DNA of 47,186 nt from a virus. Under the pieces are notes generated by a model, which worked only from the letters and a program-made list of their open reading frames with translations, was not told where the DNA came from and did not search any database. The number at the start of each line of letters is the position of its first letter. Positions within the stretch are counted from its first letter, which is position 1. The DNA lies in IMG/VR virus record IMGVR_UViG_3300012521_000001, positions 1 to 47,186 of that record. The stretch is one strand, 5' to 3'. Below, piece after piece: positions 6,916-22,349 of the stretch. The position numbers and the translations under genes were made by a program.

Positions 6916-8859
6916 ATGGGCGAAAGCAAAGGCAAAATTGATTTCGCAAGCCCAGAGGCGGTGCTGAAAGCATTGCTAGGGCTCTACAGTCGGCAGACCG
7001 CCGAAGAGCGGTCTTGGCAGACGACTGTGCACAGAAACGGCATCGGATTCAATGCGACCGACGCGCAATTCTTATCGTCGGTCGCTCAATGGGTTTTGGA
7101 TGGGAAACCATTCACCCAGAGACAGTTCGACCGGGTCTCGGTGCTGCTCCGAAAGTATGCGCGGCAGATTGAGACTATCCCCAATCTAGATGACATTAGC
7201 ATCCCACCGACCGCACTGACTGGCAAGGACGTGCAGCAGCGTCCCGTGCTACGGGGAGACGGTTTGCTGCGGGTGGTTGATGGCGCAGCCATCCAGTTCA
7301 TTCCCAATGTGTACCCCTCCCGGCAGGTGGCATCGGCTGGCTTCAGCTGGCGCAAAGCGGAGCGCCTGTGGCAGGCGCCATTTTCCCCCGCTGCTGTAGC
7401 AGCAGTCAAACGTTTGTTCCCCGCTGTGGAAATTCATAGCAGTGTGACCGAAGCGCTCAAAGAGGCACTGCACGGGCATGAATTGCCAGAAGAGATTGCT
7501 GAGAACAATACCTTGTTCTCCTACCAGAAGGAGGCCATACGCTTCCTTCTGTCCCATCCACGTGCTATGCTCGCACTGGCACCCGGTCTCGGAAAGACCG
7601 CCTGTGCGACATTTGCAGCGCACCATGTGGGAACTCGTATTCTGGTCGTGTCTCCCCTGACTCTAGTTCAAAACTGGCGCAATGAGGTGCGCAAGTGGAC
7701 GGGGGAGACTGCCGAGATCTGGCACCGTAAAATTGGGGATCGCAATTCCCGTTGGGTGATCACCAATTACGAAACAGTCGTTCGGAAAATGGTCCAGAAG
7801 CGCGATAAGAAATATGTGCGCCTGCCAGGATTCGAGTTCGATACTGTAATCCTGGACGAGACCATTTTGCTGAAAAATCGGAGAGCACAGAGAACACTCG
7901 CCACCAAAGCTTTGGTTGATGGTGCTCCTCGTGTGTGGCTCCTCTCCGGCAGCCCCGCATCCAAATTCTATGACGACATGTGGGCACAGCTCAACATTAT
8001 GCTTCCAAAGCGCTTCAGCAGCTATTGGAAATTCGCTGAGACCTACTGCCTCGTCGAGAATAATGGGTGGGGCATGGCCATCACCGGAAACCGACGAGGG
8101 GCTGACGCGATGCTCCAAGAGGATTTGGTGGACGTCTACTTCAGCCGCACGCAGGACCAGGTTCTGGACCTGCCGGATTGGCTGTTTGAGGACATAGAGG
8201 TGGCGATGGACCCCCGCCAGTACAAGCCGTACAGGCAGATGGAGGAAACCTTTATCGCCAAGCTGGGCGAGATGCCAGATGACAAAGTCGTGGCACTCAA
8301 CGTATTAGCCCAGATGACTCGGTTGCAGCAGCTGGCATCCTCTCCAGCGCTGCTTGGTGGGGAAGCGATTTCCGCCAAGTGGGATGCCGCGACCGAGATG
8401 CTTGAGTGGGTCCAGAAGCCAGTCATTGTCTGGACCAATTTCATCGAGACCGCTGAGCAGTTAGCGGAGCGATGGGGCAAGAATTACAGGGTGGCGGTCC
8501 TGACTGGAAATACACCGGAGCGAGACCGCCAGCCAATCGTGGACAGCTTCCAGGCTGGGGAGATCGATGTACTCGTCGCCCACCCAGCAGTGGGCAAGTT
8601 CGGTCTCACATTAACTCGTGCTCGAACAGTCATCTACCTGGAGCGCAGCTTCAAGGGGGATGATTACTACCAGAGCTTGCACCGTGTGCGCAGGATTGGC
8701 ACCGAGCATCGTCCCTATGTGGTCCATCTTCTGGCCACTGGACCGGAAGGGGAAGCCACAGTGGACCATGTCATCGGCCGCATCCTCAAGTACAGAAAGG
8801 AACAAAGTCTAAAACTGACCACCGGAGTACTGAAAGGAGAATGGGATGCCAAAAATTAA
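6916..8859 (+). CDS. SNF2-family (SF2) DNA helicase / translocase
   Basis: GAGGAG RBS before ATG 6916 (the ORF track starts at TTG 6883). Walker A LAPGLGKT, motif II ILDETILLKN, and a helicase-C region VLVAHPAVGKFGLTLTRARTVIYLE...QSLHRVRRIG. Confidence 0.9.
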   Translation: MGESKGKIDFASPEAVLKALLGLYSRQTAEERSWQTTVHRNGIGFNATDAQFLSSVAQWVLDGKPFTQRQFDRVSVLLRKYARQIETIPNLDDISIPPTALTGKDVQQRPVLRGDGLLRVVDGAAIQFIPNVYPSRQVASAGFSWRKAERLWQAPFSPAAVAAVKRLFPAVEIHSSVTEALKEALHGHELPEEIAENNTLFSYQKEAIRFLLSHPRAMLALAPGLGKTACATFAAHHVGTRILVVSPLTLVQNWRNEVRKWTGETAEIWHRKIGDRNSRWVITNYETVVRKMVQKRDKKYVRLPGFEFDTVILDETILLKNRRAQRTLATKALVDGAPRVWLLSGSPASKFYDDMWAQLNIMLPKRFSSYWKFAETYCLVENNGWGMAITGNRRGADAMLQEDLVDVYFSRTQDQVLDLPDWLFEDIEVAMDPRQYKPYRQMEETFIAKLGEMPDDKVVALNVLAQMTRLQQLASSPALLGGEAISAKWDAATEMLEWVQKPVIVWTNFIETAEQLAERWGKNYRVAVLTGNTPERDRQPIVDSFQAGEIDVLVAHPAVGKFGLTLTRARTVIYLERSFKGDDYYQSLHRVRRIGTEHRPYVVHLLATGPEGEATVDHVIGRILKYRKEQSLKLTTGVLKGEWDAKN

Positions 8860-9229
8860 GATTCCATCAGTGGAGATGGAACGGGTGGATGGTTCTTTCC
8901 GAACCATCTACATCACGCAGCCAGGCTGGAATTTCGGTCCGCTGCGGGATGTGTCGGAACGGGTGACCTTTCTGACGACTGGGCTGGAGTATCTGGAAGA
9001 GCTGCCTGCAGCGCTCAAGCAAGGTCTGGAAGGTTTCGACCCGGATTTGGATGCCATCGTGTGCGTGGGGAAAGTCAACCTGATTTTCCTGGTTGGTTTC
9101 CTGATCGGTCTGGGGACCAAGAGCGTGACCATTGGTTCCTACAATGACGGGGTGTACACGTGGCATCGGGTGACGTTTAATGCCAATGCCAAGAATGGCC
9201 GCAGTGCAAAGGATGGTCGAAATGGCTAA
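8846..9229 (+). CDS. Hypothetical protein
   Basis: Overlaps the SNF2 stop codon. Coding-like composition. No motif recognised. Confidence 0.6.
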   Translation: MPKIKIPSVEMERVDGSFRTIYITQPGWNFGPLRDVSERVTFLTTGLEYLEELPAALKQGLEGFDPDLDAIVCVGKVNLIFLVGFLIGLGTKSVTIGSYNDGVYTWHRVTFNANAKNGRSAKDGRNG

Positions 9230-10064
9230 GAACTACGAGAAATTCAGCCACACTATGCTGAGCACTTGGAGACGGTGTCGGCAAAAATGGTGGTGGGCAT
9301 ATATGGATGGCTACGCTGGGCCAGTCTCTTTGGGGCTCATCCGTGGTGGGGCAGGGCATCTCGCTCTGGAAACCTATTACCGCGACCCCAATCGGGACAT
9401 GAATTTGGCGATCGAAGCAGCGTGGGCAGAGTACCGCGATCGGAGTGCCCAGACGGCGGCAGGCATCAACCAAGAGGATTGGGAGATGCTGGAGCAGTCT
9501 CTGCGCCGCTATGATGAATGGGCCAAGGTTAACGATGATTTCACGGTCGTGGAGACCGAGTGGAAGTTTGAGACGCAAGTTGGGCCATTCAAGCTCGGTG
9601 GGTTCATCGATGGTGTTGTAGAGAGAAATGGTGGAATCTGGCTGCTTGAGCACAAGTTCAACAAGCGAGTGACCACCCAACATCTGGACATTGACCCCCA
9701 AGTCAGCCTGTATATGCTCGCTGCTCAGAAGCGAGGACTGAAGCCCCAGGGTGTGCTCTTCAATATCATCCGAATGGGTGGTGGTCCCACGGCAGAGCGC
9801 GAGCCAGTGGTGCGGGTGTTCCTGTACCGCAATATGGAAGGACTGGCTGCTTTCGAGAATGAGCTGATTCTCCAGATGGACGAAATTCACGCAGCCTCGT
9901 CGGTTGACCTGCCGGAAGACAGCCCAGTGTCGATTTATCGCAACATGACCCACGATTGCGCCTGGGATTGCCCATTCTTTGGAGCTTGCCTGAGCCTCAA
10001 CGACAGTGGGGAAGCAGAGTCTGTGCTTCAGACATTCGACCGTAAGAATTATGAAGGAGATTGA
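9222..10064 (+). CDS. PD-(D/E)XK nuclease of the Cas4/RecB-like type with a C-terminal Cys cluster
   Basis: N-terminal LSTWRRCRQKW. Core motif DGVVERNGGIWLLEHKFNK (D...ExK). C-terminal CAWDCPFFGAC (three Cys plus the N-terminal Cys, as in Cas4/AddB Fe-S nucleases). The start is uncertain: in-frame ATGs at 9180, 9186, 9195, 9213 and 9222. Confidence 0.8.
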   Translation: MAKNYEKFSHTMLSTWRRCRQKWWWAYMDGYAGPVSLGLIRGGAGHLALETYYRDPNRDMNLAIEAAWAEYRDRSAQTAAGINQEDWEMLEQSLRRYDEWAKVNDDFTVVETEWKFETQVGPFKLGGFIDGVVERNGGIWLLEHKFNKRVTTQHLDIDPQVSLYMLAAQKRGLKPQGVLFNIIRMGGGPTAEREPVVRVFLYRNMEGLAAFENELILQMDEIHAASSVDLPEDSPVSIYRNMTHDCAWDCPFFGACLSLNDSGEAESVLQTFDRKNYEGD

Positions 10065-10065
10065 C

Positions 10066-10770
10066 ATGAACGCAGGACCAACATCCGCAAATGTGATCAT
10101 CGAGCAGTCGACCGGATTCGACCCCCATAGAATTCGAATGCTACTGTATGGGGAGAGTGGTGCAGGCAAAACGGTTCATGCCAGCACTTGGCCCAATCCT
10201 ATCTTCCTCGACATCGATGACGGCATGGGTTCTATCAACCATCCGGTGGACCGGATTTGGATTCAGGATTGGGAGACGCTCCTGGATGCCTATTACTATC
10301 TGCGCGACCAGGACCACAAATACCAAACGATTGTCATCGACACAGTGAATGAGATGCAGAAGGTGTCGATGGATTACATCCTGGCCAACTACCCAGCGCG
10401 CCGTGCCTATGACAGCCAGCCCAGTGTGGCGGACTATGGCAAAATGATTGATGATGTGGTGAACTTAGTGCGTGCGTTCAAATCCTTGCCATTCAATCTC
10501 GTGCTCCTCACCCAGGTCAAGGATCGGGAATTTGACACGGACATGGTTCAGCCCCATCTGATTGGCAAGAACACCGCACGGGACATCTGCCGCATGATGG
10601 ATGTCATTGGGTACATCTACAAAACGGATGCCGAAGATCGCACCCGTGTCATCGCGTTTGACGCAGTGGACTTCGTCACGAAGGACCGAAGTGGGCGACT
10701 GCCTGCAATGGTTGAGATGCCGGACATCAACAGTGGGTATGACCGGCTGTGGGCATACTGGGCACCGTAA
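10066..10770 (+). CDS. AAA_24 / Sak4-like RecA-fold ATPase (recombination)
   Basis: GAAGGAGA RBS. Walker A LLYGESGAGKT, FLDIDDG, Walker B-like QTIVIDTVNE. It is followed by a DUF669-like gene, which is the usual pairing. Confidence 0.85.
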   Translation: MNAGPTSANVIIEQSTGFDPHRIRMLLYGESGAGKTVHASTWPNPIFLDIDDGMGSINHPVDRIWIQDWETLLDAYYYLRDQDHKYQTIVIDTVNEMQKVSMDYILANYPARRAYDSQPSVADYGKMIDDVVNLVRAFKSLPFNLVLLTQVKDREFDTDMVQPHLIGKNTARDICRMMDVIGYIYKTDAEDRTRVIAFDAVDFVTKDRSGRLPAMVEMPDINSGYDRLWAYWAP

Positions 10771-10785
10771 CATCTTGGGTTCTGT

Positions 10786-10804
10786 CGGTCTCATAGGGAG
10801 ACCG
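10786..10804 (+). terminator. Weak hairpin after the ATPase gene
   Basis: cggtctc-atagg-gagaccg followed by tataaa. There is no clear U-tract. Confidence 0.3.
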
Positions 10805-10836
10805 TATAAACTGGCAATAGCCAAGGAGAAATAGAA

Positions 10837-11337
10837 ATGGCCGAGAACCAGCAAGGAACACCCGTTGATCTGACCCGTACAGCGGGGGAAGTGTCGGAAG
10901 GCGTGCACACGGTGCGCATCATCGACTGGGAAGAGCGCGAGGGCAATGCTGGTCCCTATTGGAATTACACGCTTGAAGTCCAGGAAGACAGTGTAGACAA
11001 TGGCAAGCGTCTGTGGCACATTGTCTCCCTCTCCCCAGCTGCTCGCTGGCGTCTGGAGGAGTTCCTGGATGCGGTGGGCGCTCCCCGAAGTGGCCAAGCG
11101 TTTGGACCGGACTTTGTCGGCAGCTTCATGCGCGTCCACGTCAAGCATGAGGAGTTCGATGGCAAGATGCGAGCGCGGATTGTTGGTGTCCTTCCTCCGA
11201 GCGGTGCGAAGGGCAGCAAGACTCCGGCAATCACTCCCCGCAAGCGTGTTGTTCCTGCGCCTGCACCTGCGCCCAGCAAGAAGCTCCCTGAGGACGTAAT
11301 CGGGGATGAGGACGAAGACGAGGATGCTGAACTCTAG
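10837..11337 (+). CDS. DUF669-like ssDNA-binding protein with an acidic C-terminal tail
   Basis: AAGGAGAA RBS. G.H.V.I......EG..GPYW.....V pattern typical of DUF669. C-terminus DVIGDEDEDEDAEL. Confidence 0.7.
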   Translation: MAENQQGTPVDLTRTAGEVSEGVHTVRIIDWEEREGNAGPYWNYTLEVQEDSVDNGKRLWHIVSLSPAARWRLEEFLDAVGAPRSGQAFGPDFVGSFMRVHVKHEEFDGKMRARIVGVLPPSGAKGSKTPAITPRKRVVPAPAPAPSKKLPEDVIGDEDEDEDAEL

Positions 11338-11389
11338 CAACTACTGGCTGCATTGCTGGCTGCAGTGCTAGGGTAGGGGAGGGAGTGTG

Positions 11390-11788
11390 ATGGAGTGGAC
11401 ACTGGACAAAACTTGGTTAGCGGTCGACCCTGGACACAGCACCGGAATGGCGTTTGCATCAGAAGGCCAGATCCAGTGGACAGGGACGTTCCAGCCGGAT
11501 GCGGTGGTGCCAACAATCGAGATGATCGATCCCGATATTCTGGTTGTGGAGACCGTGCCACAGAACAATCCAGATCCACTCACCGCATCCCTTCTCCAGA
11601 CTATCAAGGACCACTGGGGAGATCTGCCAGGTCTCTGGTTGGTCTCCCCAGGCCACTGGAAGCCGTTCGCCCGCAGACAGAATTGGCAGGTGCCTTCCGG
11701 CAAGGACAGACACCAGAAGGATGCCGCCATGATGTTGCGATGGGCCATTCTCCAGAAAACCATGGTTGACATCGAGAAGGACATCTAG
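11390..11788 (+). CDS. ruvC: RuvC-like Holliday junction resolvase
   Basis: WLAVDPGHSTGMAF (catalytic Asp), ILVVETVP (Glu) and RHQKDAAMM (H..D), in a ~130-aa protein. Confidence 0.75.
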   Translation: MEWTLDKTWLAVDPGHSTGMAFASEGQIQWTGTFQPDAVVPTIEMIDPDILVVETVPQNNPDPLTASLLQTIKDHWGDLPGLWLVSPGHWKPFARRQNWQVPSGKDRHQKDAAMMLRWAILQKTMVDIEKDI

Positions 11789-11811
11789 AGGGACATCGAG
11801 AGGGATGCAAA

Positions 11812-12660
11812 ATGAAAGAGATTGCCATCCTTGGCTCCGGTCCAAGCGCAGCGTTTGCGTATCAGGCTTGCCTCAAGGAAGGCTACAGACCGCATGAGAT
11901 TTTTGTCGCGACCGCCAAGCTGACGGAGCCACCCGCTGGAGCATTTTGGTTCCACTGGGTTCCCAACCACATTCGTGCTGTCAAAGTGCCAATTGTCCTG
12001 AAGGGTGTTGGCACAGAGGAAGGATATCTGAGCAAGCAATGGCGCAGACATCTCAGCGGTGTGCCCAGCTCATTCCCCGAGACTGAACAGCGAATGTCTG
12101 GCTATCCAGTCAGCCGTTACGTGTGGCGGCAGATGTGGGAAGGAGCAGACATCCTACCAGGATTTCCCTTCACCGATCAGGCCGTGCGAGATCTTGCGCA
12201 AGATTTCGAGAAGGTTATCCAGACCTTCCCCAGCAAAGCAGCCATCCAAGCCTACCGAGACTACACGGTGCTGTATCCGACTGTTGTCTATGAGGTGGCG
12301 CATGAATGGCCAGAGTGGGAGAAGTTCTTGCACTCGTTTTCCGCTGAGATCCTGTACAGCCCACAGGGTGTGTATTGCCTCTACAATGGTCTAGCCCACG
12401 ATGATTGGGTAAGAGCAACATACAGTCTGGGCAAGGTGATGGTGGAGTATCCTTGGTACACTCCTCTGGACACACTACCCACCGAAGGAACGGTGCTCAA
12501 CCGAGACATCGTGCCCTGGGCAGGGGATCTGGACCCAATGCCACCCGCTGAGAATGTTCTGATGGTTGGGAGATATGCGACATGGCAAAGAAAACAACTA
12601 AGTCACGAGACCTTTGGCATCGTCTCTGGCTGGCTCAACGCAGCTACAACGACCGAATAA
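11812..12660 (+). CDS. Rossmann-fold FAD/NAD(P)-binding protein of unknown specificity
   Basis: N-terminal IAILGSGPSAAFAYQA (GxGxxA). C-terminal VLMVGRYATWQRKQLSHE resembles the C-terminal FAD motif of UDP-galactopyranose mutase / amine-oxidase-type flavoenzymes. At 282 aa it is shorter than those enzymes. Confidence 0.6.
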   Translation: MKEIAILGSGPSAAFAYQACLKEGYRPHEIFVATAKLTEPPAGAFWFHWVPNHIRAVKVPIVLKGVGTEEGYLSKQWRRHLSGVPSSFPETEQRMSGYPVSRYVWRQMWEGADILPGFPFTDQAVRDLAQDFEKVIQTFPSKAAIQAYRDYTVLYPTVVYEVAHEWPEWEKFLHSFSAEILYSPQGVYCLYNGLAHDDWVRATYSLGKVMVEYPWYTPLDTLPTEGTVLNRDIVPWAGDLDPMPPAENVLMVGRYATWQRKQLSHETFGIVSGWLNAATTTE

Positions 12661-13538
12661 GACGCGAGCAGATCGACACAGAGGACCAACGTACATACTG
12701 GTCCAAGCAGTATCTGCTGGGGCTGGTGTCTGAGGTCGATGAAGTGCTCAACTCTATGTCCTGGAAGCGCCATCGGAGACAGGACCCCAAACTGGCGCAA
12801 CAGAACATCGGTCTGGAGATTGCAGATCTGCTCAAGTATGTCATCTCGCTGGCAGAGATCTGGGATATCTCTCCGGATAGGCTGGTGGAATTGGCACTGG
12901 ACAAGAGCGATACGCTGCAGCGGATGCTTGACATGGAGCAAACCCCACTGCCTGTCGCGGATGCTCGGTATCTCATCTGCGATCTGGATGGGACAATTGC
13001 CGACTGGCGCCAGTCCTTCATCCGCTGGGCGACCGACCGTGGTGTGTATTTCCGCAGGCCAGACCCGGAGGAGACTTTGATGCTGGATGTGGATTGCGGT
13101 CTCCCCTATGACCAGTACAATGAGCTGAAGCAGCTATTTGAGCTGGAGGGTGGCTATGCCAATCTCATCCCTTACAAGGATGGGGTCGAGACCGTTAAGG
13201 CCATCCAGCGGGATGGTGCTTACCTGGTGGTGTACACCGCACGACCAGGACAGCGACTGAAGCAGATCTGGCATGAGACCTACTGCTGGCTGGAGAAGCA
13301 TGGCATCCGTCCCGATTATCTGACCATCGGGGCGGAGGCACGGCTGATTCATACGCTGTCTCTGTGGAAGCGGAATGACGTGGTGATGTTTGAGGACAAT
13401 CCCGAGCTAATGCTCAGAGCAGCAAACTCTGGCATCCCCGTCTTTGCGCGGCTGAAGCCATACAATGCCCATGCCGTCCACCCGAATATCCGATTCGTGG
13501 AAACCTATAGCCCAGACCTGGACTATTTCAGCTACTGA
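12582..13538 (+). CDS. Fusion protein: dimeric dUTPase/dCTPase-like all-alpha NTP pyrophosphatase domain plus HAD-type 5'(3')-deoxyribonucleotidase domain
   Basis: N-terminal half: SEVDEVLNSMSWKRHR and LEIADLLKYVISLAEIW (all-alpha NTP-PPase-like). C-terminal half: YLICDLDGTIADW (HAD motif I DxDGT), VVYTARP and MFEDNP. There is a 79-nt overlap with the preceding ORF. Confidence 0.7.
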   Translation: MAKKTTKSRDLWHRLWLAQRSYNDRIRREQIDTEDQRTYWSKQYLLGLVSEVDEVLNSMSWKRHRRQDPKLAQQNIGLEIADLLKYVISLAEIWDISPDRLVELALDKSDTLQRMLDMEQTPLPVADARYLICDLDGTIADWRQSFIRWATDRGVYFRRPDPEETLMLDVDCGLPYDQYNELKQLFELEGGYANLIPYKDGVETVKAIQRDGAYLVVYTARPGQRLKQIWHETYCWLEKHGIRPDYLTIGAEARLIHTLSLWKRNDVVMFEDNPELMLRAANSGIPVFARLKPYNAHAVHPNIRFVETYSPDLDYFSY

Positions 13539-13551
13539 GAGGAGGCCAAAA

Positions 13552-13800
13552 ATGGGAACACTGGCAGTCAAGCCATCGGATATAACCAAAGAGGCTGTGC
13601 GCCAAAAACTCATCCAACGAGCAACACGCGATATGCTCATCCGCACCTGGCAAATCTACGACACACTCCACCCAATCCTGTTCTACGCCAAGCTGTATGG
13701 TATGGAGCAGCAGGTGGAGGATTGGATCAAAGAGGTGGCCAGTCCTATGGATTATCCGATCAATCGCAACACGTTTTGGCGCGTCAAAGTGGAGGGGTAG
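13552..13800 (+). CDS. Hypothetical protein (82 aa)
   Basis: GAGGAGG RBS before ATG 13552. The longer 13465 version overlaps the preceding gene. Confidence 0.6.
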   Translation: MGTLAVKPSDITKEAVRQKLIQRATRDMLIRTWQIYDTLHPILFYAKLYGMEQQVEDWIKEVASPMDYPINRNTFWRVKVEG

Positions 13801-13803
13801 GGG

Positions 13804-14157
13804 ATGCAGGCAAAACAACTCCCATTGTTTGGGCCAGAGGATTGGCCAACAGAGACCGACGAGACAATCCACGAGAAACGAGTGCGTGTGTTCCGGCAGC
13901 TCTGCCGTGAGAACCAGGCGGTGTTCGAGGAAAAGAACAGGCAGTACGGGGACGCAATCCGGCTGACTGGTGTGCTGGGAGCAGCAATTGAGCTCATTGG
14001 TTGCGTCAACCGACTGCAGCAACTCGTTGTCAAAGCTCCGGGGCATGGGAGAGGCAATGAAGAGGCCATATTCAATGTTCTCACCGATGCCCACAACTAC
14101 GCAAACATCGCAGCGATGATGCTAGAAGACCAAAATTGGGAAGGAGAGAATGAGTAA
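13804..14157 (+). CDS. DUF1599-like protein (nucleotide modification associated domain 1)
   Basis: KNRQYGDAIRLTGVLGAAIELIGCVNRLQQLV matches my recollection of the DUF1599 core (K..DYG....G..G......K..R). It is adjacent to thyX, as is common for this family. Confidence 0.65.
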   Translation: MQAKQLPLFGPEDWPTETDETIHEKRVRVFRQLCRENQAVFEEKNRQYGDAIRLTGVLGAAIELIGCVNRLQQLVVKAPGHGRGNEEAIFNVLTDAHNYANIAAMMLEDQNWEGENE

Positions 14158-14935
14158 GATGAGTAAACCGCAGCTGGTCTATGAGATCGAACGGCACAGC
14201 ATCAAAGCAGGGAAGTATAAGGTGCAAGTCTGGACACCGACTGTGGCGCAGGTGGAGCTAATCAGCCTCACTAACTCGCCAGCCGACACGATGGCAATCG
14301 TCACTCGTGGCTACACCGGAGTGTACTCCCCTGACTTGCCAGACAAGGATGAGCGCGACCGTCTGCTTGCCGACATTGTCAAGACCAAACTCGCAACTCC
14401 CACCGAGATGATTCACTTCACTTGGCTCATCCGGGGAGTGACCCGCGCCTGGACACACCAGGCGGTGCGGTATCGGGTGGGCACGGCATATGTCCAGGAA
14501 AGCATGCGCTTCCTGGGACACAAGGGAGTGTACCGCGTGCTGATGACTGACAAGCTGGCCAAGCACCCGCAGAGTGAGGAGGCGCAGCACTACAGCCGAA
14601 CAGTCTGCGACAGTGTGGTTGCTTATGTGGACCTGATTGACAATGGTGTGCCTGACCAGGATGCCAGGGGAGTGCTACCGACAAACATTCTCACCAGTCT
14701 GTTCTGGGATATGTCGCTGAGCACTCTCATGCATGTCTACAACACCCGCGTTTGCTGCCAAGCGCAGACTGGGGAGTGGGTGCCCATCCTGCTGCAGATG
14801 AAGGATTGGCTGCGGCAGTGCTGCCCTGAAGTTGCGGAGATGCTGACTGCTCCCATCGACCGAGGGGAGCCTTGCGGATTCAATGCCTCATTCGACCGCC
14901 CGTGCGTGTGGAAGGTGCGCGATGGAGTCAAATGA
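14150..14935 (+). CDS. thyX: ThyX-like flavin-dependent thymidylate synthase (divergent: RYR instead of RHR)
   Basis: VTRAWTHQAVRYRVGTAYVQESMRF compares with the ThyX signature R.FTHE.VRHR..S..Q.S.RY. There is also a downstream NTRVCCQAQTGEW segment (R....AQ.E). Confidence 0.8.
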   Translation: MSKMSKPQLVYEIERHSIKAGKYKVQVWTPTVAQVELISLTNSPADTMAIVTRGYTGVYSPDLPDKDERDRLLADIVKTKLATPTEMIHFTWLIRGVTRAWTHQAVRYRVGTAYVQESMRFLGHKGVYRVLMTDKLAKHPQSEEAQHYSRTVCDSVVAYVDLIDNGVPDQDARGVLPTNILTSLFWDMSLSTLMHVYNTRVCCQAQTGEWVPILLQMKDWLRQCCPEVAEMLTAPIDRGEPCGFNASFDRPCVWKVRDGVK

Positions 14936-15308
14936 GATTATCCATATCCAGCTCCACTACCATCCCAGTGGCAAAATTGGGGCAGTGGAACCAGACACCG
15001 GAGCTGTCCATGTAGATGAGCATGGCGACATCCGCCTGTTCGCAACAGTCGGCAGTGCCCTGCGACACTTCCGAGCAAACGCTGCGAAGTTCAAGAGTGT
15101 GGGGTATGAGGTGATTACTCCCAGTGGGGCAGTTCACCACTATGGCAGAATGTTCAACCGCCACCAATGGCACCAAGTCTCCGACATGGAGCTGCTGGAC
15201 AACAGTGGGAGAACATTCCTGTTCTATCGGTGCAACAAGTGCAGAAGCGTCTGGCGCCAGTTTGCTGAGGCAGATGTTCCCCCGACGTTTGGCTGCGCTG
15301 GAGAATAG
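14922..15308 (+). CDS. Hypothetical protein (128 aa)
   Basis: ATG 14922 overlaps the thyX stop codon. GGAAGG RBS. Contains CNKC. No family recognised. Confidence 0.55.
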   Translation: MESNEIIHIQLHYHPSGKIGAVEPDTGAVHVDEHGDIRLFATVGSALRHFRANAAKFKSVGYEVITPSGAVHHYGRMFNRHQWHQVSDMELLDNSGRTFLFYRCNKCRSVWRQFAEADVPPTFGCAGE

Positions 15309-15363
15309 TGAATCTGGGTGGGCTGGCAGAGGCTGGCCCACCCCCACCAGATTGGAGGACACC

Positions 15364-16176
15364 ATGGCTAAAATTCTTGCATTCATCCCGACCAGGGAGC
15401 GCAACACAGTTCACATCCCCGCCAACATCCTGGCACCGTTTGTGGACAAAATCGTGGTGATGTCCAAAGGAGCAGACACCACCGGATTGCCAGACAACAG
15501 CACTGTGATTGAGCAGAGCTGGACTGGGCTGCAGGGGGTGCAGGAAGTCGGAGATGTGATGGCTTACGAGGAAGGATTTGACTATATCCTTCAAGCCGAT
15601 GATGACATCCGGTTCCCACCAGAGTTGGTTGCCAATCTTATCCAGCTCATGGAAGACAATCCAGGATTGGGCGCATGCTGTTCTCTTTCCTCAGTCCAGT
15701 ATTACTGGAACAGGGAAGTGCAGTCCAACAAACATTTTCTGGTTGCGCCATTCCCCAGCCAGCTGACTCTGATGCGAGCCAAACTTGTGCCAGAGTTACA
15801 GCAGGCGTTTGGCACCGTGTATGGGGGATTGGGCACTATGGAGGACGTCGCCAAAGGTGTCCATCTGTGGAGCCTGGGGTATCCTTCCGTGTACTTCAGA
15901 GCAGATGAAGAGCTTGTCCACAATGTGTTTATCCCCCGACTCAAGAAGAGCAAAGAGATGGGTGGCCAGCCAATCTCAGAGCGAAGCCGGATGATGCACG
16001 AATCCGTTGAATACCTCCAGAAGTTCGTTGGACCGGACAATGTGCTCAAGTCTGCTAAGCTTGGCTACCGGAAGGATGGGCAGGCAACTTTCCGTCTGCG
16101 GTGGAACTGGGATTGGATGTGTGGGAATGTCAAGCAGCCAGTAGGGTATGAGGACAGCAAGGGCAGAACATTCTAG
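15364..16176 (+). CDS. GT-A fold glycosyltransferase-like protein (family-2-like, DxD motif)
   Basis: GGAGGA RBS before ATG 15364 (the 15124 version is an Arg-rich extension). N-terminal ILAFIPTRERN, then FDYILQADDDIRFPP (DxD). No TM segments or signal peptide seen. Confidence 0.65.
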   Translation: MAKILAFIPTRERNTVHIPANILAPFVDKIVVMSKGADTTGLPDNSTVIEQSWTGLQGVQEVGDVMAYEEGFDYILQADDDIRFPPELVANLIQLMEDNPGLGACCSLSSVQYYWNREVQSNKHFLVAPFPSQLTLMRAKLVPELQQAFGTVYGGLGTMEDVAKGVHLWSLGYPSVYFRADEELVHNVFIPRLKKSKEMGGQPISERSRMMHESVEYLQKFVGPDNVLKSAKLGYRKDGQATFRLRWNWDWMCGNVKQPVGYEDSKGRTF

Positions 16177-16246
16177 TCTGGCTGCGCACGCTGCGTGGGG
16201 TGTTTGGGGCAGGCAGTCCCAACACCCCTAATACAACCATTGGGAC

Positions 16247-18193
16247 ATGTGGGAGAAGCAAGCAATGGACCAGGCAGCTGCAAGAATTGCGACCCTGGAG
16301 AAAATACGGCAAACCACCAGCCAGCCCCATGAGAGGGAGCAGGCAGAAGCCATGCTGCGGAGACTGCGTGGGCAAGAGCCAGAGGAGAAGCAGCGCAAAT
16401 GGCATCTGCTGACGCTGGAGGAATTGGCGCAGTGCTCCGGTCACCCAGTTGCGGTGGACATCGAGACCAATGGTCTGGAATGGTGGAACAAGCGCATTAT
16501 CGGCATCGGTGTGCACTGCCCCAAAGCAGGCATCACCGGATACATGCCCATCTTCAACAAAGCAGAAGCAGATGCTGCCTCTGCAGTGATGCAAGCGTGG
16601 GATAGCAAGACGGTGTTCATCGCCCACAATATCAAGTTTGAGCTCCATTTCCTGGGTCTAGAGCCATGGGATATGACACTATGGGACACCGCAGTAATGG
16701 CCCATCTGCTTGACTCGCGCCAGTCCAAAGCTCTAAAGGATGTTGAGGCTGCTTACCTGGGGACCGATAGCAAACAAGGCTATGTGGACATGGTTCCATA
16801 CAAGCAGCGCAGGAAAATCTGGACATGGCCACTCGACATCGTTGCCCCATACTGCATCAACGACTGCATCGTTGAGTATGAGCTGGCAAAAGTGATGAAG
16901 CCACTCCTCAAAGAATGGGGCTTGTGGGATCTGTTCAAGAAGGATATGGAGTACATCAAAATCCTCTGGGAGACCGAGCACCGCGGATGGCCAGTGGACA
17001 TTGAGTTCATTACCAAGGCCAGGGACTTGCTCCTGGACCATGTGCGGGAGCTTGTCCAGGAATTGTTTGATGCGGTGGGCTATGAGTTCAACTATCGGTC
17101 TGCCAAGCAGCTCAGCAAGGCCATCTATGATAACATGGGCATCCCCATGCCTGTCGACCCATTTCCCAATTCCAAATTCGCTGACCGTGGGAAGTACAAC
17201 AGCACCTGCACTTCTACCTTCCTGCTGATGGAGAAAGTAAACCACCCGCTGGGGGAGCTGATTGCAACCATCCGAGAAAGCGAGAAGTTGGCCAAGACGC
17301 TGTCCAAGTGGCTGGAATTGGTTGATGAGAATGGACGCATTCACACCAACTTCAATCTGACTGGGACAAAGACCGGACGACTGAGCAGCAGCAATCCGAA
17401 CGTTCAAAACATCGCATCCAATGTACGCACCCGATTCACGCAAGGTGTGTACACGGGTGGCACGGAGAGAACAGAAGAGTATAACCTGCGCAATGCCTTC
17501 GTCGCGCCACCAGGCTGCATGCTGGTTGCGGCTGACTACAAACAGATGGAGATGCGTATGTTTGGCATCCTGAGCGGCGACCCGTTCATGCTGAAAAGTC
17601 TGGCGGCTGGACGCGACATCCACGGTGACATCGCGGAGAAAATCTGGGGACAACGAGATGAGACGCACCGAGAGTGGGCAAAGACAATCAGTTTCGGCCT
17701 CATTTATGGCATGACCGTGGGAAGTCTGCAGTTCAAGCTTAACATGTCGATAGCGGAGTCCCGGCGCATCACACAGGACTACTGGAACGCATTTCCACGC
17801 ATCCAGCCCTGGATGGGCGATGTGATCCAGGAAGTGCGCAAGAACAACTACATCCGCTATTGGTCTGGACGCATCTGGCACGAGGATGACCCGGAAATGC
17901 ATTATCGGGCTGCCAATGCCTTGATCCAAGGGGGATGCGCCGATGTTCTGTCCATCGCTGCACTGCGTGTGCATAAATGGCTCAAGGAGAACATCGGGGA
18001 TGACGCTTACATTATCTCATATGTGCACGACGAGTTGATTTGCTGCGTGCCAGAGGATCGGGTGAATGAGACCGCCAAAGCCTTGCAGGAGATTATGCGG
18101 GTGGAGGATTTGTTCGTCATTCCCTGGCTGACCGATGTCAAAGTGGGCAAAACTTACGGGTCCATGGAGAAATACACGGTGCAGGAAGGGTAG
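16247..18193 (+). CDS. Family A DNA polymerase (Pol I-like) with a 3'-5' exonuclease domain
   Basis: Exo I VAVDIETNGL. NPNVQNI. Motif A VAADYKQMEMRMF. Motif B REWAKTISFGLIYGM. Motif C YVHDELIC. Confidence 0.95.
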   Translation: MWEKQAMDQAAARIATLEKIRQTTSQPHEREQAEAMLRRLRGQEPEEKQRKWHLLTLEELAQCSGHPVAVDIETNGLEWWNKRIIGIGVHCPKAGITGYMPIFNKAEADAASAVMQAWDSKTVFIAHNIKFELHFLGLEPWDMTLWDTAVMAHLLDSRQSKALKDVEAAYLGTDSKQGYVDMVPYKQRRKIWTWPLDIVAPYCINDCIVEYELAKVMKPLLKEWGLWDLFKKDMEYIKILWETEHRGWPVDIEFITKARDLLLDHVRELVQELFDAVGYEFNYRSAKQLSKAIYDNMGIPMPVDPFPNSKFADRGKYNSTCTSTFLLMEKVNHPLGELIATIRESEKLAKTLSKWLELVDENGRIHTNFNLTGTKTGRLSSSNPNVQNIASNVRTRFTQGVYTGGTERTEEYNLRNAFVAPPGCMLVAADYKQMEMRMFGILSGDPFMLKSLAAGRDIHGDIAEKIWGQRDETHREWAKTISFGLIYGMTVGSLQFKLNMSIAESRRITQDYWNAFPRIQPWMGDVIQEVRKNNYIRYWSGRIWHEDDPEMHYRAANALIQGGCADVLSIAALRVHKWLKENIGDDAYIISYVHDELICCVPEDRVNETAKALQEIMRVEDLFVIPWLTDVKVGKTYGSMEKYTVQEG

Positions 18194-18203
18194 GGGGAGT
18201 GCA

Positions 18204-20792
18204 ATGTCCGAGGAAAAAAACATTGCCAAATTGCTCCTGGATATCTTTGGTGGCAATGAATACCATGCAGTCGGAAAGAAGCGCAGTGGTGGGGCAGGTG
18301 TCTGGTACGACCTGGTGGAGGAGCCTCTGACTGAGGAGCTGCTGGAGGAGCATCTCAAAGGCCAGAAGGTTTTGGGCAGCTATCCAATCTTGCCAGACAA
18401 CACAGTCAAATACCTGGGATGGGACATCGACAGTGCCGGAGACCTGCTCAAAGCCAGGGAGCTGGCCAAGCGCATCATCGCTCGGATTGAGCACTTGCCC
18501 CATGTGGTGGAGTTCAGTGGTGGCAAAGGATACCACATCCTGCTGTTTCTCACCGAACCGATGCCAGCAGCCAAGGCCAAGGAGATTGCGGAGTTCGTCA
18601 GGGATTCAGAGGAGCTTCCACGCAGCGGCGACCCCCACGTGGAGTGCTACCCAAAGCAGGCCAAGCTTGGGGAAAGCAGCAGCAAGCGCAGAGCAGTGGG
18701 CAATCTTCTGAAGATTCCGCTGGGCCAGCACTTGATGACCCACGAATGGTCCAGGTTTGTCAACCCAGCCAATGGTTGGGAGGATGGTCCCGCTGTTGCG
18801 CCTGAAGAGGCGCTAGAATGGCGCGTCACACCCGATGAAGCACTGGGTCTCCTCTCCGCAAGCAGGGATCTGATAGGGGAGTTAGCGCAGGCCATCTCGC
18901 AAGACTGGGATGAAGGCAAACGGCATGATCTGTCCCTGTACTTGGCTGGATACCTCTCCCAGATTGGCTGGTCCTTCGATCAGACCGCGCAGCTGATCAA
19001 GCGGATCTGCGATCTGCGTGGCGATGGGGAGGTGGAGAATCGCTTGCAGGCTGCGCAGGACACATACCGCAAGCTGGACAGCGGAATGCGTGTCGCAGGC
19101 TTCCAAGCTCTTGTGGAGACCCTCAGCGGTGCCGCCATGCGCACGGTCTTGGACCTTGCACCGGATTTGGCTTCACCGGACATTGCTCGGAGAGTGGACA
19201 AATTGCGGTTCCAGAAGGGACCCGCGTGGCTCAAGGAGCGCAAGGTGGCTGACCTGGTTTGGTCCTATCTGACAGACCGGGACACCAATGGACGCATCCT
19301 GCGAGTGCCAGATGCCGCCAACCAGACCTACCGCACCTACTGGTACAATCGCAGAAACAAGCGAGTGGTGCCTCTGGACGCACGCCTGTTTGAGGTTGAG
19401 CTGTACCAGACTTTTCAGCTCAGCGCAGCAGAAGGATTCACCCAGCGTGTGCTGGAGACCGTCCGACTGCGAGCAGAAGCCATGGGTGACACGGTGGATG
19501 TGCACAAGAGCAGCTGCTACAAAGATGGGGTGCTGTATGTCAACTTTGGGGGACCGGACGTCTGGGTGTGCAATGGCAAGGATATGCCATACAGTGTGCA
19601 CAATGGGGAGCTGGATTTGTTCTTCCTCACTGGGAAGAGGATGGACCCAGTGGAGCCAGACTTTGACGAACCGATTGATGTCTGGTCAGTGCTCGTGGAT
19701 GACCTGAACTTTGCTCGGAGTGGGGATACACCCATTCCCCCAGACCAGCAGAGAGAGCTATTCAAAGCCTGGGTGTTGAGCAATTTCTTCAGGGAGCTAC
19801 TGCCCACACGACCCATTCTCACCCTGCTGGGAGCACCAGGCAGTGGCAAAACAACAGGCATCCGGAGAGTGCTTCAGTTTATGGAGGGTCTCCAGGAAAA
19901 TGTGCTAGAGGTGGTCGAAGACAAGCCAGACTTTTGGCGGTCAGTCCTCGAGAACCACCGCATAGTCGTGCTCGATAACTTGGAAGAAAGCAATGCGCAG
20001 TGGCTCGCTCGCAGTCTGGACCAGGTCGCGACCGGAAGCACCATTGAAATCAGGGAGCTGTACAAAACAAACCGCAGCTATCAGATCAGAGCAGATGTGT
20101 TCGTTGCCCTGACCGCAGTAACCATGCCGTTCAGCAAAAGCACACTGTTTGAGAGATTGCTGACGCTGAATATGGAGAAGCTGCAGGTGTACACACCAGC
20201 CCATGCCTTCAACGAGCAACTGAAGCGCTCCCTCAACGGAATGTGGGCGGATATGCTGCTGAAGCTCAATCGGGTGGTGGCGGAACTGGAGCGTGTGAAG
20301 ACAGCACCCCTCTCTGTGAACATGCGAATGTCTGACTTTGCGATGTTCTGCGCAAGACTCCGGGAAGTGGATAGCGACATTCTGGATGGGGAGACCTTGC
20401 GCAATGGGCTGAGTTTGCTGAGCAGCAGCCAAGCCATCGCACTGGCGCAATCGGAGCACTCCGCATTGCCTGTTCTCCAGCGGTGGATTGAGGAGAATCC
20501 CGAAGTTGCTGCAAGGGAGCACACCATCTCGGACTTGGTGGGGCCATTGACTGAGATGGCGAAGAAGATGGACCGCAAAAACTGGCGGTTCACCACAGCC
20601 CAATCATTGGCCAACCATCTGCGGGCCATGCACTCCGTGCTGCAGAAGGAGCTAGGGTGCGTTATCGGAGAGGAGTATGACAGCGACAAAGGCAGGACCA
20701 AGACCGTGTACTCATTCCCCCATATGCGTCTCATGGGGGAGAGAATAGCTTTGGAAAGCAAGAAGGAGGATAAGAATGGGCATAGTGGCTAA
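18204..20792 (+). CDS. Bifunctional AEP-type primase-polymerase fused to a P-loop (D5/SF3-like) helicase
   Basis: GGGGGAG RBS before ATG 18204. AEP motifs LGWDIDS and SGGKGYHILLF. Walker A LLGAPGSGKTTG and Walker B-like IVVLDNLEE further downstream. Confidence 0.85.
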   Translation: MSEEKNIAKLLLDIFGGNEYHAVGKKRSGGAGVWYDLVEEPLTEELLEEHLKGQKVLGSYPILPDNTVKYLGWDIDSAGDLLKARELAKRIIARIEHLPHVVEFSGGKGYHILLFLTEPMPAAKAKEIAEFVRDSEELPRSGDPHVECYPKQAKLGESSSKRRAVGNLLKIPLGQHLMTHEWSRFVNPANGWEDGPAVAPEEALEWRVTPDEALGLLSASRDLIGELAQAISQDWDEGKRHDLSLYLAGYLSQIGWSFDQTAQLIKRICDLRGDGEVENRLQAAQDTYRKLDSGMRVAGFQALVETLSGAAMRTVLDLAPDLASPDIARRVDKLRFQKGPAWLKERKVADLVWSYLTDRDTNGRILRVPDAANQTYRTYWYNRRNKRVVPLDARLFEVELYQTFQLSAAEGFTQRVLETVRLRAEAMGDTVDVHKSSCYKDGVLYVNFGGPDVWVCNGKDMPYSVHNGELDLFFLTGKRMDPVEPDFDEPIDVWSVLVDDLNFARSGDTPIPPDQQRELFKAWVLSNFFRELLPTRPILTLLGAPGSGKTTGIRRVLQFMEGLQENVLEVVEDKPDFWRSVLENHRIVVLDNLEESNAQWLARSLDQVATGSTIEIRELYKTNRSYQIRADVFVALTAVTMPFSKSTLFERLLTLNMEKLQVYTPAHAFNEQLKRSLNGMWADMLLKLNRVVAELERVKTAPLSVNMRMSDFAMFCARLREVDSDILDGETLRNGLSLLSSSQAIALAQSEHSALPVLQRWIEENPEVAAREHTISDLVGPLTEMAKKMDRKNWRFTTAQSLANHLRAMHSVLQKELGCVIGEEYDSDKGRTKTVYSFPHMRLMGERIALESKKEDKNGHSG

Positions 20793-21057
20793 GTATGTGA
20801 CGCTGGAGCAAGCCTACCAGCTGCTGAAGGACCATCCCAATGCGCAGATTGTGGTGTTCACCGCAAAGGTGAAACGGCTGGAACCCAATGGGGACGGCAG
20901 CTACCTGGTGGAGACCACGAAGAAAACCTACCCAGCGCTGCCAGGGAAAACATATTGCTACATTATGAAGCTGGACCCATTCCTGCCATTGCTTATCTTG
21001 GGCGTTCTCGCTGCGATGTGGATGGCAGAGCAAGGCTGGTTTGGTCCCTGGATTTGA
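20776..21057 (+). CDS. Hypothetical protein with a C-terminal TM helix
   Basis: AGAAGGAGGA RBS. C-terminal FLPLLILGVLAAMWMA. Confidence 0.6.
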   Translation: MGIVAKYVTLEQAYQLLKDHPNAQIVVFTAKVKRLEPNGDGSYLVETTKKTYPALPGKTYCYIMKLDPFLPLLILGVLAAMWMAEQGWFGPWI

Positions 21058-21084
21058 AAGGGGATGTGAGAGGAGAGGAAGGAG

Positions 21085-21276
21085 ATGACTGCGGAAACAG
21101 ACGCTCGTGCACGTTTCCTCGAAACGACAGCGCGACTCGGTGGTACCCATCCTGGATCGGATTTCCGGCGATGGGTAAAGCGCGAAAGTGACGAGGTGCT
21201 GGCGCGGCTGTTGCGGTCTTCTATTCCCGGTGTGGCGAATATCGCCCGCATGGAGCTTGATCGGAGGATGCGCTGA
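21085..21276 (+). CDS. Hypothetical protein (63 aa)
   Basis: GAGGAAGGAG RBS. ATGA coupling to the next small ORF. Confidence 0.55.
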   Translation: MTAETDARARFLETTARLGGTHPGSDFRRWVKRESDEVLARLLRSSIPGVANIARMELDRRMR

Positions 21277-21437
21277 TGGCCAAATTATCCAGTGTGGTGG
21301 TCCTGGTGGTCTTGGTCGTGATCTTTGCCACCGTCGCCCTGGCTGCGCTTGTGGTTGGAATGCACTGGCCACAGCCAGCCAATGTACAGCTGTGGGAATA
21401 CGCTGAGTCGTGGAGGGAGTGGACCCATTGGCTATGA
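21276..21437 (+). CDS. Small membrane protein (53 aa; below the ORF-track length cutoff)
   Basis: My own translation: MAKLSSVVVLVVLVVIFATVALAALVVGMHWPQPANVQLWEYAESWREWTHWL. ATGA overlaps at both ends. Confidence 0.5.
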   Translation: MAKLSSVVVLVVLVVIFATVALAALVVGMHWPQPANVQLWEYAESWREWTHWL

Positions 21438-21637: not shown

Positions 21638-21694
21638 GGTGAGAAGAGGTTGGGCTCGGTTGAACCAGAGGTGAGGCAAGGACTGGCTGGCAAG

Positions 21695-21989: not shown

Positions 21990-22349
21990 ATGGAACTGGA
22001 ACAATACCAGCATTCGGCACTGTCCACGGTGGTGTTCCCAGAAGAATGGGGCATCGCATACTGCGCACTCAAGCTCAACGGTGAAGCAGGGGAAGTGGCC
22101 GAAGAAGTCGGCAAAGCCATCCGTGCGGGGGAGCTTGTGTTCCCAATGGGCAGTGCTTCCAGGGACAGTGGACCAGGTACAGTGCATGAGAAACTGCGGG
22201 AGGCACTGCGGGATGAGCTGGGGGATGTGCTGTGGTATGTGGCGGTGCTGGCCCACCAACTGAACTATTCGCTGGAGGAGATTGCCACCGCAAATTTGGC
22301 AAAATTGCAAGCCAGAAAGCAGAGAGGAGAATTGAAACACCATGGATAA
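21990..22349 (+). CDS. mazG: MazG-like nucleoside triphosphate pyrophosphohydrolase
   Basis: KLNGEAGEVAEEVGK (ExxE) and LRDELGDVLWYVAVLA (ExxD), in a ~119-aa protein. Confidence 0.85.
   Translation: MELEQYQHSALSTVVFPEEWGIAYCALKLNGEAGEVAEEVGKAIRAGELVFPMGSASRDSGPGTVHEKLREALRDELGDVLWYVAVLAHQLNYSLEEIATANLAKLQARKQRGELKHHG

Follow-up and report, generated by a model that had tools for sequence, protein, structure and literature searches.

The 5-hydroxymethylcytosine (hmC) pathway of the T-even phages combines the gp56 dCTPase/dUTPase, the gp42 dCMP hydroxymethylase, the gp1 deoxynucleoside monophosphate (dNMP) kinase and alpha- and beta-glucosyltransferases, the T4 glucosyltransferases being of the GT-B fold. 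To my knowledge, all known phage pathways that form C5-substituted pyrimidines at the stage of the nucleotide pool start from an enzyme of the ThyA family. A dUMP hydroxymethyltransferase of that family operates in the 5-hydroxymethyluracil (hmU) and thymidine-hypermodification phages (SPO1/SP8; ViI, M6, phiW-14), in which tailoring on DNA proceeds through kinase and transferase steps (PMC8989533). Phage PBS1 excludes thymidine from its DNA by means of a dTMP phosphatase (Dtm), which is structurally similar to human mdN (PMC12697855). The subject here is a cassette of seven consecutive genes, among them one for an enzyme of the flavin-dependent ThyX family, found in the IMG/VR virus record IMGVR_UViG_3300012521_000001; the window analysed is the whole stretch of 47,186 nucleotides, which is essentially a whole phage genome.

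The seven genes had been taken as one block in a first-pass annotation of the window, and synteny across more than 100 loci bears this out: judged by gene order, the cassette is one conserved phage operon and one functional unit. The reading favoured here, to which I give a probability of about 40%, is tentative, namely that the cassette re-engineers the pyrimidine deoxynucleotide pool, possibly yielding an unconventional DNA base. The literature searched holds no description of the cassette, of its ThyX subfamily or of a ThyX-based base modification that could be found.

Loci were gathered through homologues of ORF1 (the Rossmann flavoprotein gene that opens the cassette) and of the glycosyltransferase in public assemblies, plus JGI metagenome and IMG/VR loci retrieved with a profile of the pyrophosphatase-HAD fusion protein, and all were scored with profiles of five cassette proteins. 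They fall into two classes, 53 distinct loci in which the pyrophosphatase and the HAD phosphatase are fused and 59 in which the HAD protein is unfused. In the fusion class ORF1 lies directly upstream in 33 of the 34 loci having enough upstream sequence, and both orf117, a small helical protein, and a ThyX of the clade described below are encoded within 3 kb downstream in all 21 loci having enough downstream sequence; the glycosyltransferase accompanies them in 8 of these 21. The core of the cassette comprises four genes, for ORF1, the pyrophosphatase-HAD fusion, orf117 and the linked ThyX, to which the glycosyltransferase is an optional add-on. Wherever it was seen (14/14 loci), the glycosyltransferase gene stands either between the orf117 gene and ThyX or right after ThyX, and start and stop codons of neighbouring genes overlap in three loci (L007, L013 and L014). 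Glycosyltransferase-positive relatives carry further genes flanking ThyX, namely class I S-adenosylmethionine (SAM) methyltransferases, an FkbM methyltransferase (E = 2.7e-19) and a Methyltransf_24 protein, and in some a second glycosyltransferase paralogue is packed near ThyX. Such extra glycosyltransferases and methyltransferases are the pattern expected of optional tailoring enzymes.

The class with unfused HAD, in which ORF1 lies directly upstream in 51/56 loci, includes cultured phages: Mycobacterium cluster D (PBI1, PLot, Hawkeye and others), Gordonia Lambovirus (Sadboi, Lambo) and Streptomyces phage Gibson. In these actinophages a DnaE polymerase is preceded, at a distance of a few genes, by adjacent genes annotated as 'oxidoreductase' (the ORF1 homologue) and 'nucleotidase', with a 'ThyX-like thymidylate synthase' encoded a few kb from the pair; among all deposited phages, those bearing this trio provide the best matches to the window ThyX. 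Between the ORF1-HAD pair and DnaE there are also genes for a short-chain dehydrogenase (SDR), whose adh_short match goes up to E = 2e-27, and for a small protein that partially matches SAM methyltransferases, as seen in L009 (Sadboi gp74, gp76), L010 (Hawkeye gp73) and L012 (PBI1 gp60, gp62). In several actinophage-like loci of this class (L079, L082, L092/L093, L098, L111) an open reading frame (ORF) situated some 5 kb upstream from the ORF1-HAD pair weakly matches the DxD core of the glycosyltransferase (25-44 bits) and may be another GT-A gene. Searches of one representative genome set, covering 185,579 species of bacteria and archaea, found no relatives of the fusion protein or of ORF1.

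On Pfam Thy1 (PF02511, cutoff 24.8) the window ThyX reaches 95.1 bits (E = 6.1e-27), and it falls just under the cutoff of the TIGR02170 equivalog (83.3 against 87.9). An alignment was made of 45 distinct ThyX sequences linked to ORF1 and a HAD gene with 7 canonical ones, from T. maritima and from phages of Thermus, Vibrio, Mycobacterium cluster C, Synechococcus, Bacillus and E. coli; residues are given in T. maritima numbering. E58, R78, R80, R90 and R174 are invariant in the linked clade (canonical set: R90 and R174 7/7; E58, R78 and R80 5/7), and Q75, S88 and R147 are nearly so (R147 in 44/45; canonical set: S88 and R147 7/7, Q75 6/7). The residues that bind dUMP (Q75, R78, R80, S88, R90, R147, R174) are thereby all present in the window ThyX, and each in 41-45 of the 45 linked sequences. 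Other positions, by contrast, depart from the canonical state. H53, a histidine in 7/7 canonical sequences, is L or I in 44/45 linked ones (L in the window) and never H; E86 (7/7) is Q in 45/45; Y91 (7/7) is F, H, A or T (F in the window) and never Y; N85 (6/7) is never N; H178 (4/7) is Q or M and never H; and H79 (6/7) is Y, Q, T or S and never H, so that the RHR motif becomes RYR in the window ThyX and, over the whole clade, R[YQTS]R. The enzyme had been called a divergent ThyX at first sight, which is apt, active-site positions being non-canonical in 45/45 linked sequences.

The linked ThyX proteins also have a C-terminal extension relative to the canonical ones and three cysteines that the latter do not have, at window positions 202 (45/45), 242 (43/45) and 252 (40/45). 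C202 stands two residues past the equivalent of R174, the uracil-polarising arginine; the gained cysteines could serve in nucleophilic attack, in metal binding or in a redox relay. In T. maritima ThyX, the folate or nicotinamide ring presumably stacks against H53, and nucleotide contacts are attributed to E86 and Y91. Because the dUMP-binding residues are kept, nucleotide binding looks retained, and because H53 is lost, the cofactor side looks rebuilt, together with part of the substrate pocket. The linked ThyX is, on these alignments, a distinct subfamily.

The fusion protein had been described as an NTP pyrophosphatase joined to a HAD deoxyribonucleotidase, and this description was recovered, with a weak resemblance to deoxyribonucleotidases. 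Residues 12-101 match Pfam dUTPase_2 (PF08761) with 29.4 bits against a cutoff of 22.9; the same domain is sub-threshold for Pfam MazG (16.9 against 22) and reaches 16.4 against the cutoff of 300 for the NCBIfam dUTPase equivalog. Its acidic motifs comprise E54 in EVDE and E79 and D82 in EIAD; E54 and D82 are invariant in both fusion alignments, and E79 is kept among the closer homologues only. By sequence similarity the N-terminal domain belongs to the all-alpha NTP pyrophosphatases of the dimeric dUTPase/MazG superfamily. In the HAD domain the DxDGT motif is conserved, with D134, D136, G137, T219 and D272 invariant. The best PHROG for this domain is a 'polynucleotide kinase' phosphatase family (2e-13), a 'deoxyribonucleotidase' family following at 7e-4. 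Profile matches of the fusion protein in the PDB are mdN/cdN deoxyribonucleotidases and MazG-like proteins, and the best natural PDB matches of the HAD domain are the human 5'(3')-deoxyribonucleotidases mdN/cdN, at a weak E = 0.006-0.05. Pfam NT5C gives no match with the window fusion and a faint one with its homologue at L005. The HAD domain may thus be said to resemble 5'(3')-deoxyribonucleotidases weakly.

The fusion gene overlaps ORF1 by 79 nucleotides. Public gene calls, also those in L001 and L003, begin it at 12744, about 54 codons late, and lose most of the pyrophosphatase domain. Residues encoded upstream of 12744 (N23, W40, Y44 and L46-L48) are invariant in fusion homologues of 34-43% identity; therefore, the ATG at 12582 is the real start. 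A second, stand-alone MazG-type pyrophosphatase, which the first-pass annotation had placed at 21990, matches both Pfam PF03819 and phrog_229 (Table 1).

ORF1 had been labelled Rossmann flavoprotein-like, and its N-terminal GSGPS dinucleotide-binding motif and its profile matches, which are confined to FAD/NAD(P) Rossmann regions, agree with the label. The GSGPS and GRYAxW motifs are invariant among its homologues, and the protein matches phrog_8720. Its top Foldseek match is UDP-galactopyranose mutase (E = 3.5e-4), at a TM of only 0.40 and with a poor AlphaFold model (pLDDT 54); an HMM match reaches PDB entry 3hdq at the mutase motif YxxKQWG, weakly (E = 0.31). By eye, four motifs occur in the same order in ORF1 and in the mutase, at a spacing that fits a mutase with its helical domain shortened by about 70 residues. 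When the E. coli mutase (a sequence verified to be identical to PDB 1i8t) is stripped of the Rossmann part and compared with ORF1 alongside its shuffled versions, the real sequence takes rank 12 of 3001, and hhalign of ORF1 with a single mutase sequence aligns the Rossmann part alone. Pfam GLF has no match in ORF1, and a single-protein scan of IMG/VR with ORF1 found nothing. ORF1 may be related to UDP-galactopyranose mutase, a similarity that is not established and is kept as a lead because the AlphaFold model is poor.

The glycosyltransferase is predicted to be a soluble enzyme of the GT-A fold, as first labelled: its AlphaFold model has a pLDDT of 95, its Foldseek matches in the PDB are the GT-A enzymes SpsA (E = 1.9e-9), RmlT and TarP, and the motif D80-D81-D82 is invariant across its family. 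Against Pfam Glycos_transf_2 (cutoff 23.3) the window protein scores 16.2-16.8 bits, and 2 of the 10 relatives scanned individually barely reach the cutoff. Among the named Foldseek matches in BFVD, a library of viral structures, TET-associated glycosyltransferases (TAGT) are the most frequent, which is only suggestive, and 14 of 30 family members have sub-threshold matches to TAGT (PF20691). Membership in TAGT was rejected, the window protein having no match and its relatives 16.7-21 bits against a cutoff of 27.5; Pfam and PHROG scans of window ORFs revealed no TET/JBP partner gene. DNA binding was not supported by a test on isoelectric point and conserved basic columns. The family amounts to 45 representatives among 1.84 billion clustered proteins and was recovered by exhaustive search only: word-indexed searches, single or with a profile, gave almost nothing, tblastn against the phage records found no match and a single-protein scan of IMG/VR none. 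In all its retrievable contexts the family is found in this cassette, beside ThyX.

Of the small proteins, orf117 has a signature conserved in the alignment of its homologues, KNxxYG...DxxNY, and a sole PHROG match, to the functionally unassigned phrog_1485 (E = 7e-11). Its profile is weakly similar to that of the window MazG (hhalign probability 21%), and for this reason it is suggested to be a MazG-like bundle minus most of the catalytic acids. The earlier assignment of orf117 to DUF1599, the nucleotide modification associated domain 1, did not hold, since neither orf117 nor three homologues have a Pfam match at E <= 10; tblastn found no match in 50,697 phage records, and a literature search on DUF1599 retrieved nothing relevant. 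No PDB homologue of orf117 was found, the only matches being designed coiled coils. The ORFs of 82 and 128 aa, both present as annotated, are conserved only in the closest relative (L003), the former at 90% identity, and neither has a family match in the Pfam and PHROG scans. In several relatives the stretch from ThyX to the polymerase holds small ORFs that are rich in cysteine and resemble zinc ribbons (L024, 9569-9853; L067, 10790-11107); no homology was detectable between them and the window 128-aa ORF with its CxxC motif.

Table 1. Cassette genes and associated features of the window (nucleotide positions in the 47,186-nucleotide stretch)
Feature	Position	Strand	Match or motif
Conserved 133-aa gene, upstream boundary of the cassette; same position in relatives	11387..11788	+	
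ORF1, predicted 282-aa FAD/NAD(P) Rossmann protein	11812..12660	+	GSGPS motif, phrog_8720
318-aa fusion, predicted all-alpha NTP pyrophosphatase (dimeric dUTPase/MazG type) and HAD phosphatase	12582..13538	+	PF08761, PHROGs 415, 2643
82-aa basic ORF	13552..13800	+	Gene-called in source contig, no family match
orf117, small helical protein, 117 aa	13804..14157	+	phrog_1485
ThyX-family flavoenzyme, distinct subfamily	14150..14935	+	Pfam Thy1
128-aa ORF, C-terminal CxxC motif	14922..15308	+	Gene-called in source contig, no family match
Predicted soluble 270-aa GT-A glycosyltransferase, DDD (DxD) motif	15364..16176	+	AlphaFold and Foldseek
Family A DNA polymerase (polA), directly 3' of the cassette	16247..18193	+	Pfam DNA_pol_A
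Second, stand-alone 119-aa MazG-type NTP pyrophosphatase	21990..22349	+	PF03819 E = 2.3e-10, phrog_229 E = 1.3e-29

The arrangement of seven consecutive plus-strand genes between the 133-aa gene and polA is confirmed at the positions first annotated, and six of the seven labels given to them were reproduced, that of DUF1599 being the exception; the label of resolvase for the 133-aa gene is unverified, this gene being without Pfam or PHROG match. A Shine-Dalgarno-like motif precedes the start of all seven genes, and a promoter and terminator scan of the plus strand from 10.7 to 21.2 kb found no promoter-like or terminator-like sites above shuffled controls. Since there is no internal plus-strand terminator or promoter and Shine-Dalgarno motifs are present, the layout fits one transcription unit running into the polymerase and the AEP primase-helicase. 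Within the latter (18135-20792), the AEP domain best matches the 'TOTE conflict system' AEP family (PF22548, E = 1.5e-21), and a papillomavirus-E1-like helicase region lies 3' of it. The polymerase is at most 30% identical to those of cultured phages. A 46.3-kb contig from an ENA metagenome and a JGI contig encode the same ThyX protein; a nucleotide search with the cassette region against the 50,697 phage records returned no match, and a close relative is absent among these deposited genomes.

Elsewhere in the window, almost every gene is on the plus strand and the GC skew is positive all along; the G+C content is about 54-57% in the half devoted to replication and nucleotide metabolism (7000-27000) and 60-65% in the structural half (27000-42000). 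A DUF6011 protein (23233-24015) contains a long low-complexity stretch of KPE/KA repeats (KPEAKPETKPETKAKPEAKAKAKAKAKAKAKTKA). A 567-aa protein (2060-3763) with two bacterial SH3 domains may be a cell-wall-binding lysis or tail protein, and a PHROG with the label 'Rnase E' is matched by a 196-aa protein (27168-27758) whose gene immediately precedes the large ORF 27691-29148.

How the parts might work together can be outlined as follows. The fusion would degrade a canonical pyrimidine deoxynucleoside triphosphate (dNTP), by way of the dNMP, to the nucleoside, and so block its re-use. The ThyX variant, in which the folate/NADPH-stacking histidine and sugar-contacting residues are replaced and a cysteine is placed beside the base-polarising arginine, would bind dUMP, put a one-carbon unit on C5 and release a product other than dTMP, for instance 5-hydroxymethyl-dUMP. 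Flavin chemistry would be sustained by the Rossmann flavoprotein, incorporation of the product into DNA would be carried out by host kinases and the adjacent DNA polymerase, and the glycosyltransferase, where present, would decorate it. As for the chemistry, 5-hydroxymethyl-dUMP has been trapped from the exocyclic-methylene intermediate of ThyX. The ThyX reaction goes through this intermediate (PMC8989533); if water or some other nucleophile captured it in place of hydride, a 5-substituted dUMP would result.

The domain composition of the fusion implies that it would dephosphorylate a dNTP fully, via the dNMP, to the nucleoside. A protein of this kind, taking a dNTP to the nucleoside, would therefore remove rather than supply a nucleotide, and a near-obligatory nucleotidase beside an enzyme of the thymidylate-synthase type makes most sense if the product differs from the nucleotide removed. 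By analogy with the T-even phages, the optional glycosyltransferase and methyltransferases would fit the decoration of a hydroxylated product. A more specific form of the proposal, which I consider rather unlikely, is that the enzyme on the ThyX scaffold is a flavin-dependent pyrimidine C5 hydroxymethylase or alkylase, which with the mutase-like flavoprotein and the clearing enzyme replaces a canonical pyrimidine in the DNA, the base being then elaborated by the GT-A enzyme and the methyltransferases. If true, DNA hypermodification would have a second route, independent of ThyA and present in more than 100 phage lineages including the cultured cluster D mycobacteriophages.

A number of observations weigh against an unconventional base. 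Scans of window ORFs with Pfam and PHROGs turned up neither a dNMP kinase nor a TET/JBP protein, a ThyA-type hydroxymethylase or a C5 methyltransferase. Palindromes are avoided genome-wide, with a mean z of -1.6 for four-base and -1.15 for six-base palindromes, non-palindromes being at about 0. The avoidance is strongly expressed in TGCA (z = -7.6) and CATG (z = -6.8), as well as in GAGCTC (5 observed, 20.9 expected) and CTCGAG (3 against 14.6); CTAG, GGCC, AGCT and GATC among the 4-mers and CAGCTG among the 6-mers are also avoided, and GCGC and CCGG are over-represented. Avoidance of palindromes is a signature of DNA exposed to restriction, unexpected for DNA that is broadly shielded. The early region encodes an N6/N4-type DNA methyltransferase (5167-6234; PF01555, E = 7e-48), which is a separate, ordinary route to DNA protection. 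The glycosyltransferase is missing from 13 of the 21 cassettes, falls under the Pfam thresholds both for GT2 and for TAGT, and is acidic, with a pI of 5.8 (family median 7.3). No report of unusual DNA was found in the literature on the cultured actinophages that carry the trio. A modified base in the phage DNA is a prediction from sequence, and so is any substrate proposed for the four enzyme activities (pyrophosphatase, nucleotidase, ThyX, glycosyltransferase). Of the base hypermodification put forward in the first-pass annotation, there stand the functional unit and the match of its parts to the logic of base replacement; against it stand the lack of a known hydroxylated-base enzyme or dNMP kinase among the scanned ORFs, and the avoided palindromes.

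The same parts could instead provide ordinary thymidylate by a specialised route, and this is a serious contender, if short of even odds. The dUTPase-like domain would give dUMP, from which the ThyX variant, having lost the histidine that stacks NADPH/folate, would make dTMP in dependence on ORF1 as a dedicated reductase that replaces the lost NADPH site, the conserved cysteines perhaps relaying from ORF1; the HAD domain would merely balance pools, and the glycosyltransferase and methyltransferases would be unrelated accessories in a variable spot, for virion proteins or envelope glycans. Every dUMP-binding arginine is indeed kept, the Pfam Thy1 threshold is easily passed, dUTPase_2 is the best family for the N-terminal domain of the fusion, and ORF1 and the linked ThyX subfamily are always found together, which fits a two-component enzyme. 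That 13/21 cassettes do without the glycosyltransferase, that this enzyme is acidic and that palindrome avoidance and the N6/N4 methyltransferase fit ordinary DNA all speak for the same explanation, and phage glycosyltransferases acting on capsid and tail-tube proteins are documented (PMC12363180). A nucleotidase in nearly every cassette, however, opposes nucleotide supply, and a change of reductase alone leaves the systematic loss of E86 and Y91 unexplained. Moreover, the cassette genes belong to the replication operon, not to the late operon, and the glycosyltransferase stands beside ThyX in all contexts examined, in two arrangements and with stop and start codons that overlap. The alternative already named in the first-pass annotation, a supply of dTMP plus an unrelated glycosyltransferase, is weakened but still plausible.

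Quite improbable is a product outside DNA, i.e. a modified nucleoside, nucleotide or nucleotide-sugar that might be either a small-molecule effector or a decoy for host defences that rely on nucleotides, in which case the phosphatase would end the pathway at the nucleoside, and glycosylation or methylation would take place on the small molecule. The dephosphorylation from triphosphate to nucleoside implied by the fusion would suit such a product, as would the weak similarity of ORF1 to UDP-galactopyranose mutase, a nucleotide-sugar enzyme, were that similarity established; the SDR, methyltransferase and glycosyltransferase genes of relatives resemble sets for the tailoring of small molecules or nucleotide-sugars, an acidic glycosyltransferase suits a small-molecule acceptor, and palindrome avoidance fits unmodified DNA. 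Yet the place of the cassette, directly upstream of a DNA polymerase in a replication operon, favours a role in making DNA precursors, and I know of no ThyX-based phage pathway to a small-molecule product. Hardly credible, finally, is that the seven genes are unrelated neighbours, in a chance or inherited order without shared function. Synteny among relatives extends over the entire replication region, so that the co-linearity is partly inherited, and conservation of the ORFs of 82 and 128 aa stops at the closest relative. Actinophages with a different replication module (DnaE, not PolA), however, also combine the ORF1-HAD pair with the special ThyX, the ThyX signature tracks the ORF1-HAD linkage in 45/45 sequences, and gene gain and rearrangement occur only around ThyX.

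If the linked ThyX has a product other than dTMP, as the proposed re-engineering of the pyrimidine pool supposes, the cassette would represent a new enzymatic route to modified DNA, many phage annotations of 'ThyX-like thymidylate synthase', 'oxidoreductase' and 'nucleotidase' would have to be reassigned, and new reagents for DNA labelling and restriction evasion might become available. If the product is plain dTMP, the cassette would be a previously undescribed multi-component form of ThyX, with an obligatory flavoprotein and phosphatase partner. The core trio being present in cultured, easily grown actinophages, the matter is directly testable at the bench.

Compared with the T-even hmC pathway, the cassette likewise joins a pool-clearing pyrophosphatase, a predicted one-carbon transferase for a pyrimidine dNMP and an optional glycosyltransferase, the last being dispensable in many relatives, as are the T-even glucosyltransferases. 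The two differ in that the one-carbon enzyme is of the flavin-dependent ThyX family in the cassette and of the ThyA family in T-even phages, in that no dNMP kinase was found in the window and the nucleotidase is fused to the pyrophosphatase, and in that ORF1 and orf117 are without T-even counterpart; the cassette glycosyltransferase is predicted to have the GT-A fold, unlike the GT-B enzymes of T4. With the hmU and hypermodification phages the cassette, as proposed, would share the exclusion of a thymidine nucleotide and a C5-substituted dUMP made at the pool stage, followed by optional tailoring, although none of their enzymes was found among the window ORFs scanned. As to PBS1 and its uracil-containing DNA, the cassette HAD domain weakly matches mdN/cdN, the fold group that Dtm resembles; unlike Dtm, it is fused to an NTP pyrophosphatase, and the cassette is always linked to a ThyX, which would be useless to a phage with dU-DNA.

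Canonical ThyX enzymes (T. maritima TM0449 and phage ThyX) have in common with the linked clade the Thy1 domain and residues E58, Q75, R78, R80, S88, R90, R147 and R174; the linked clade stands apart by its RYR-type motif, the replacement of H53, E86, Y91 and H178, the C-terminal extension and the three extra cysteines. The phage TAGT enzymes (PF20691) and the cassette glycosyltransferase are both small, soluble, stand-alone GT-A enzymes, yet no member of the cassette family reaches the gathering score, and TET/JBP and C5 methyltransferase genes were not found in the window. Virion glycosylation by phage-encoded glycosyltransferases has been described for the mycobacteriophages Che8, Corndog and Myrna (PMC12363180). 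Phage-encoded glycosyltransferases are common to both, but those of the cassette lie in the replication operon, always beside ThyX, and no link of theirs to structural genes was seen. The actinophage module (PBI1 gp58, gp59, gp65; Sadboi gp70, gp71; Gibson gp55, gp54, gp46) differs from the cassette of the window in having the HAD protein unfused, in being without orf117 and this glycosyltransferase family, with an SDR and a methyltransferase-like protein instead, and in its DnaE polymerase; it shares with it ORF1, the HAD protein, the same ThyX subfamily and the position just upstream of the replicative polymerase.

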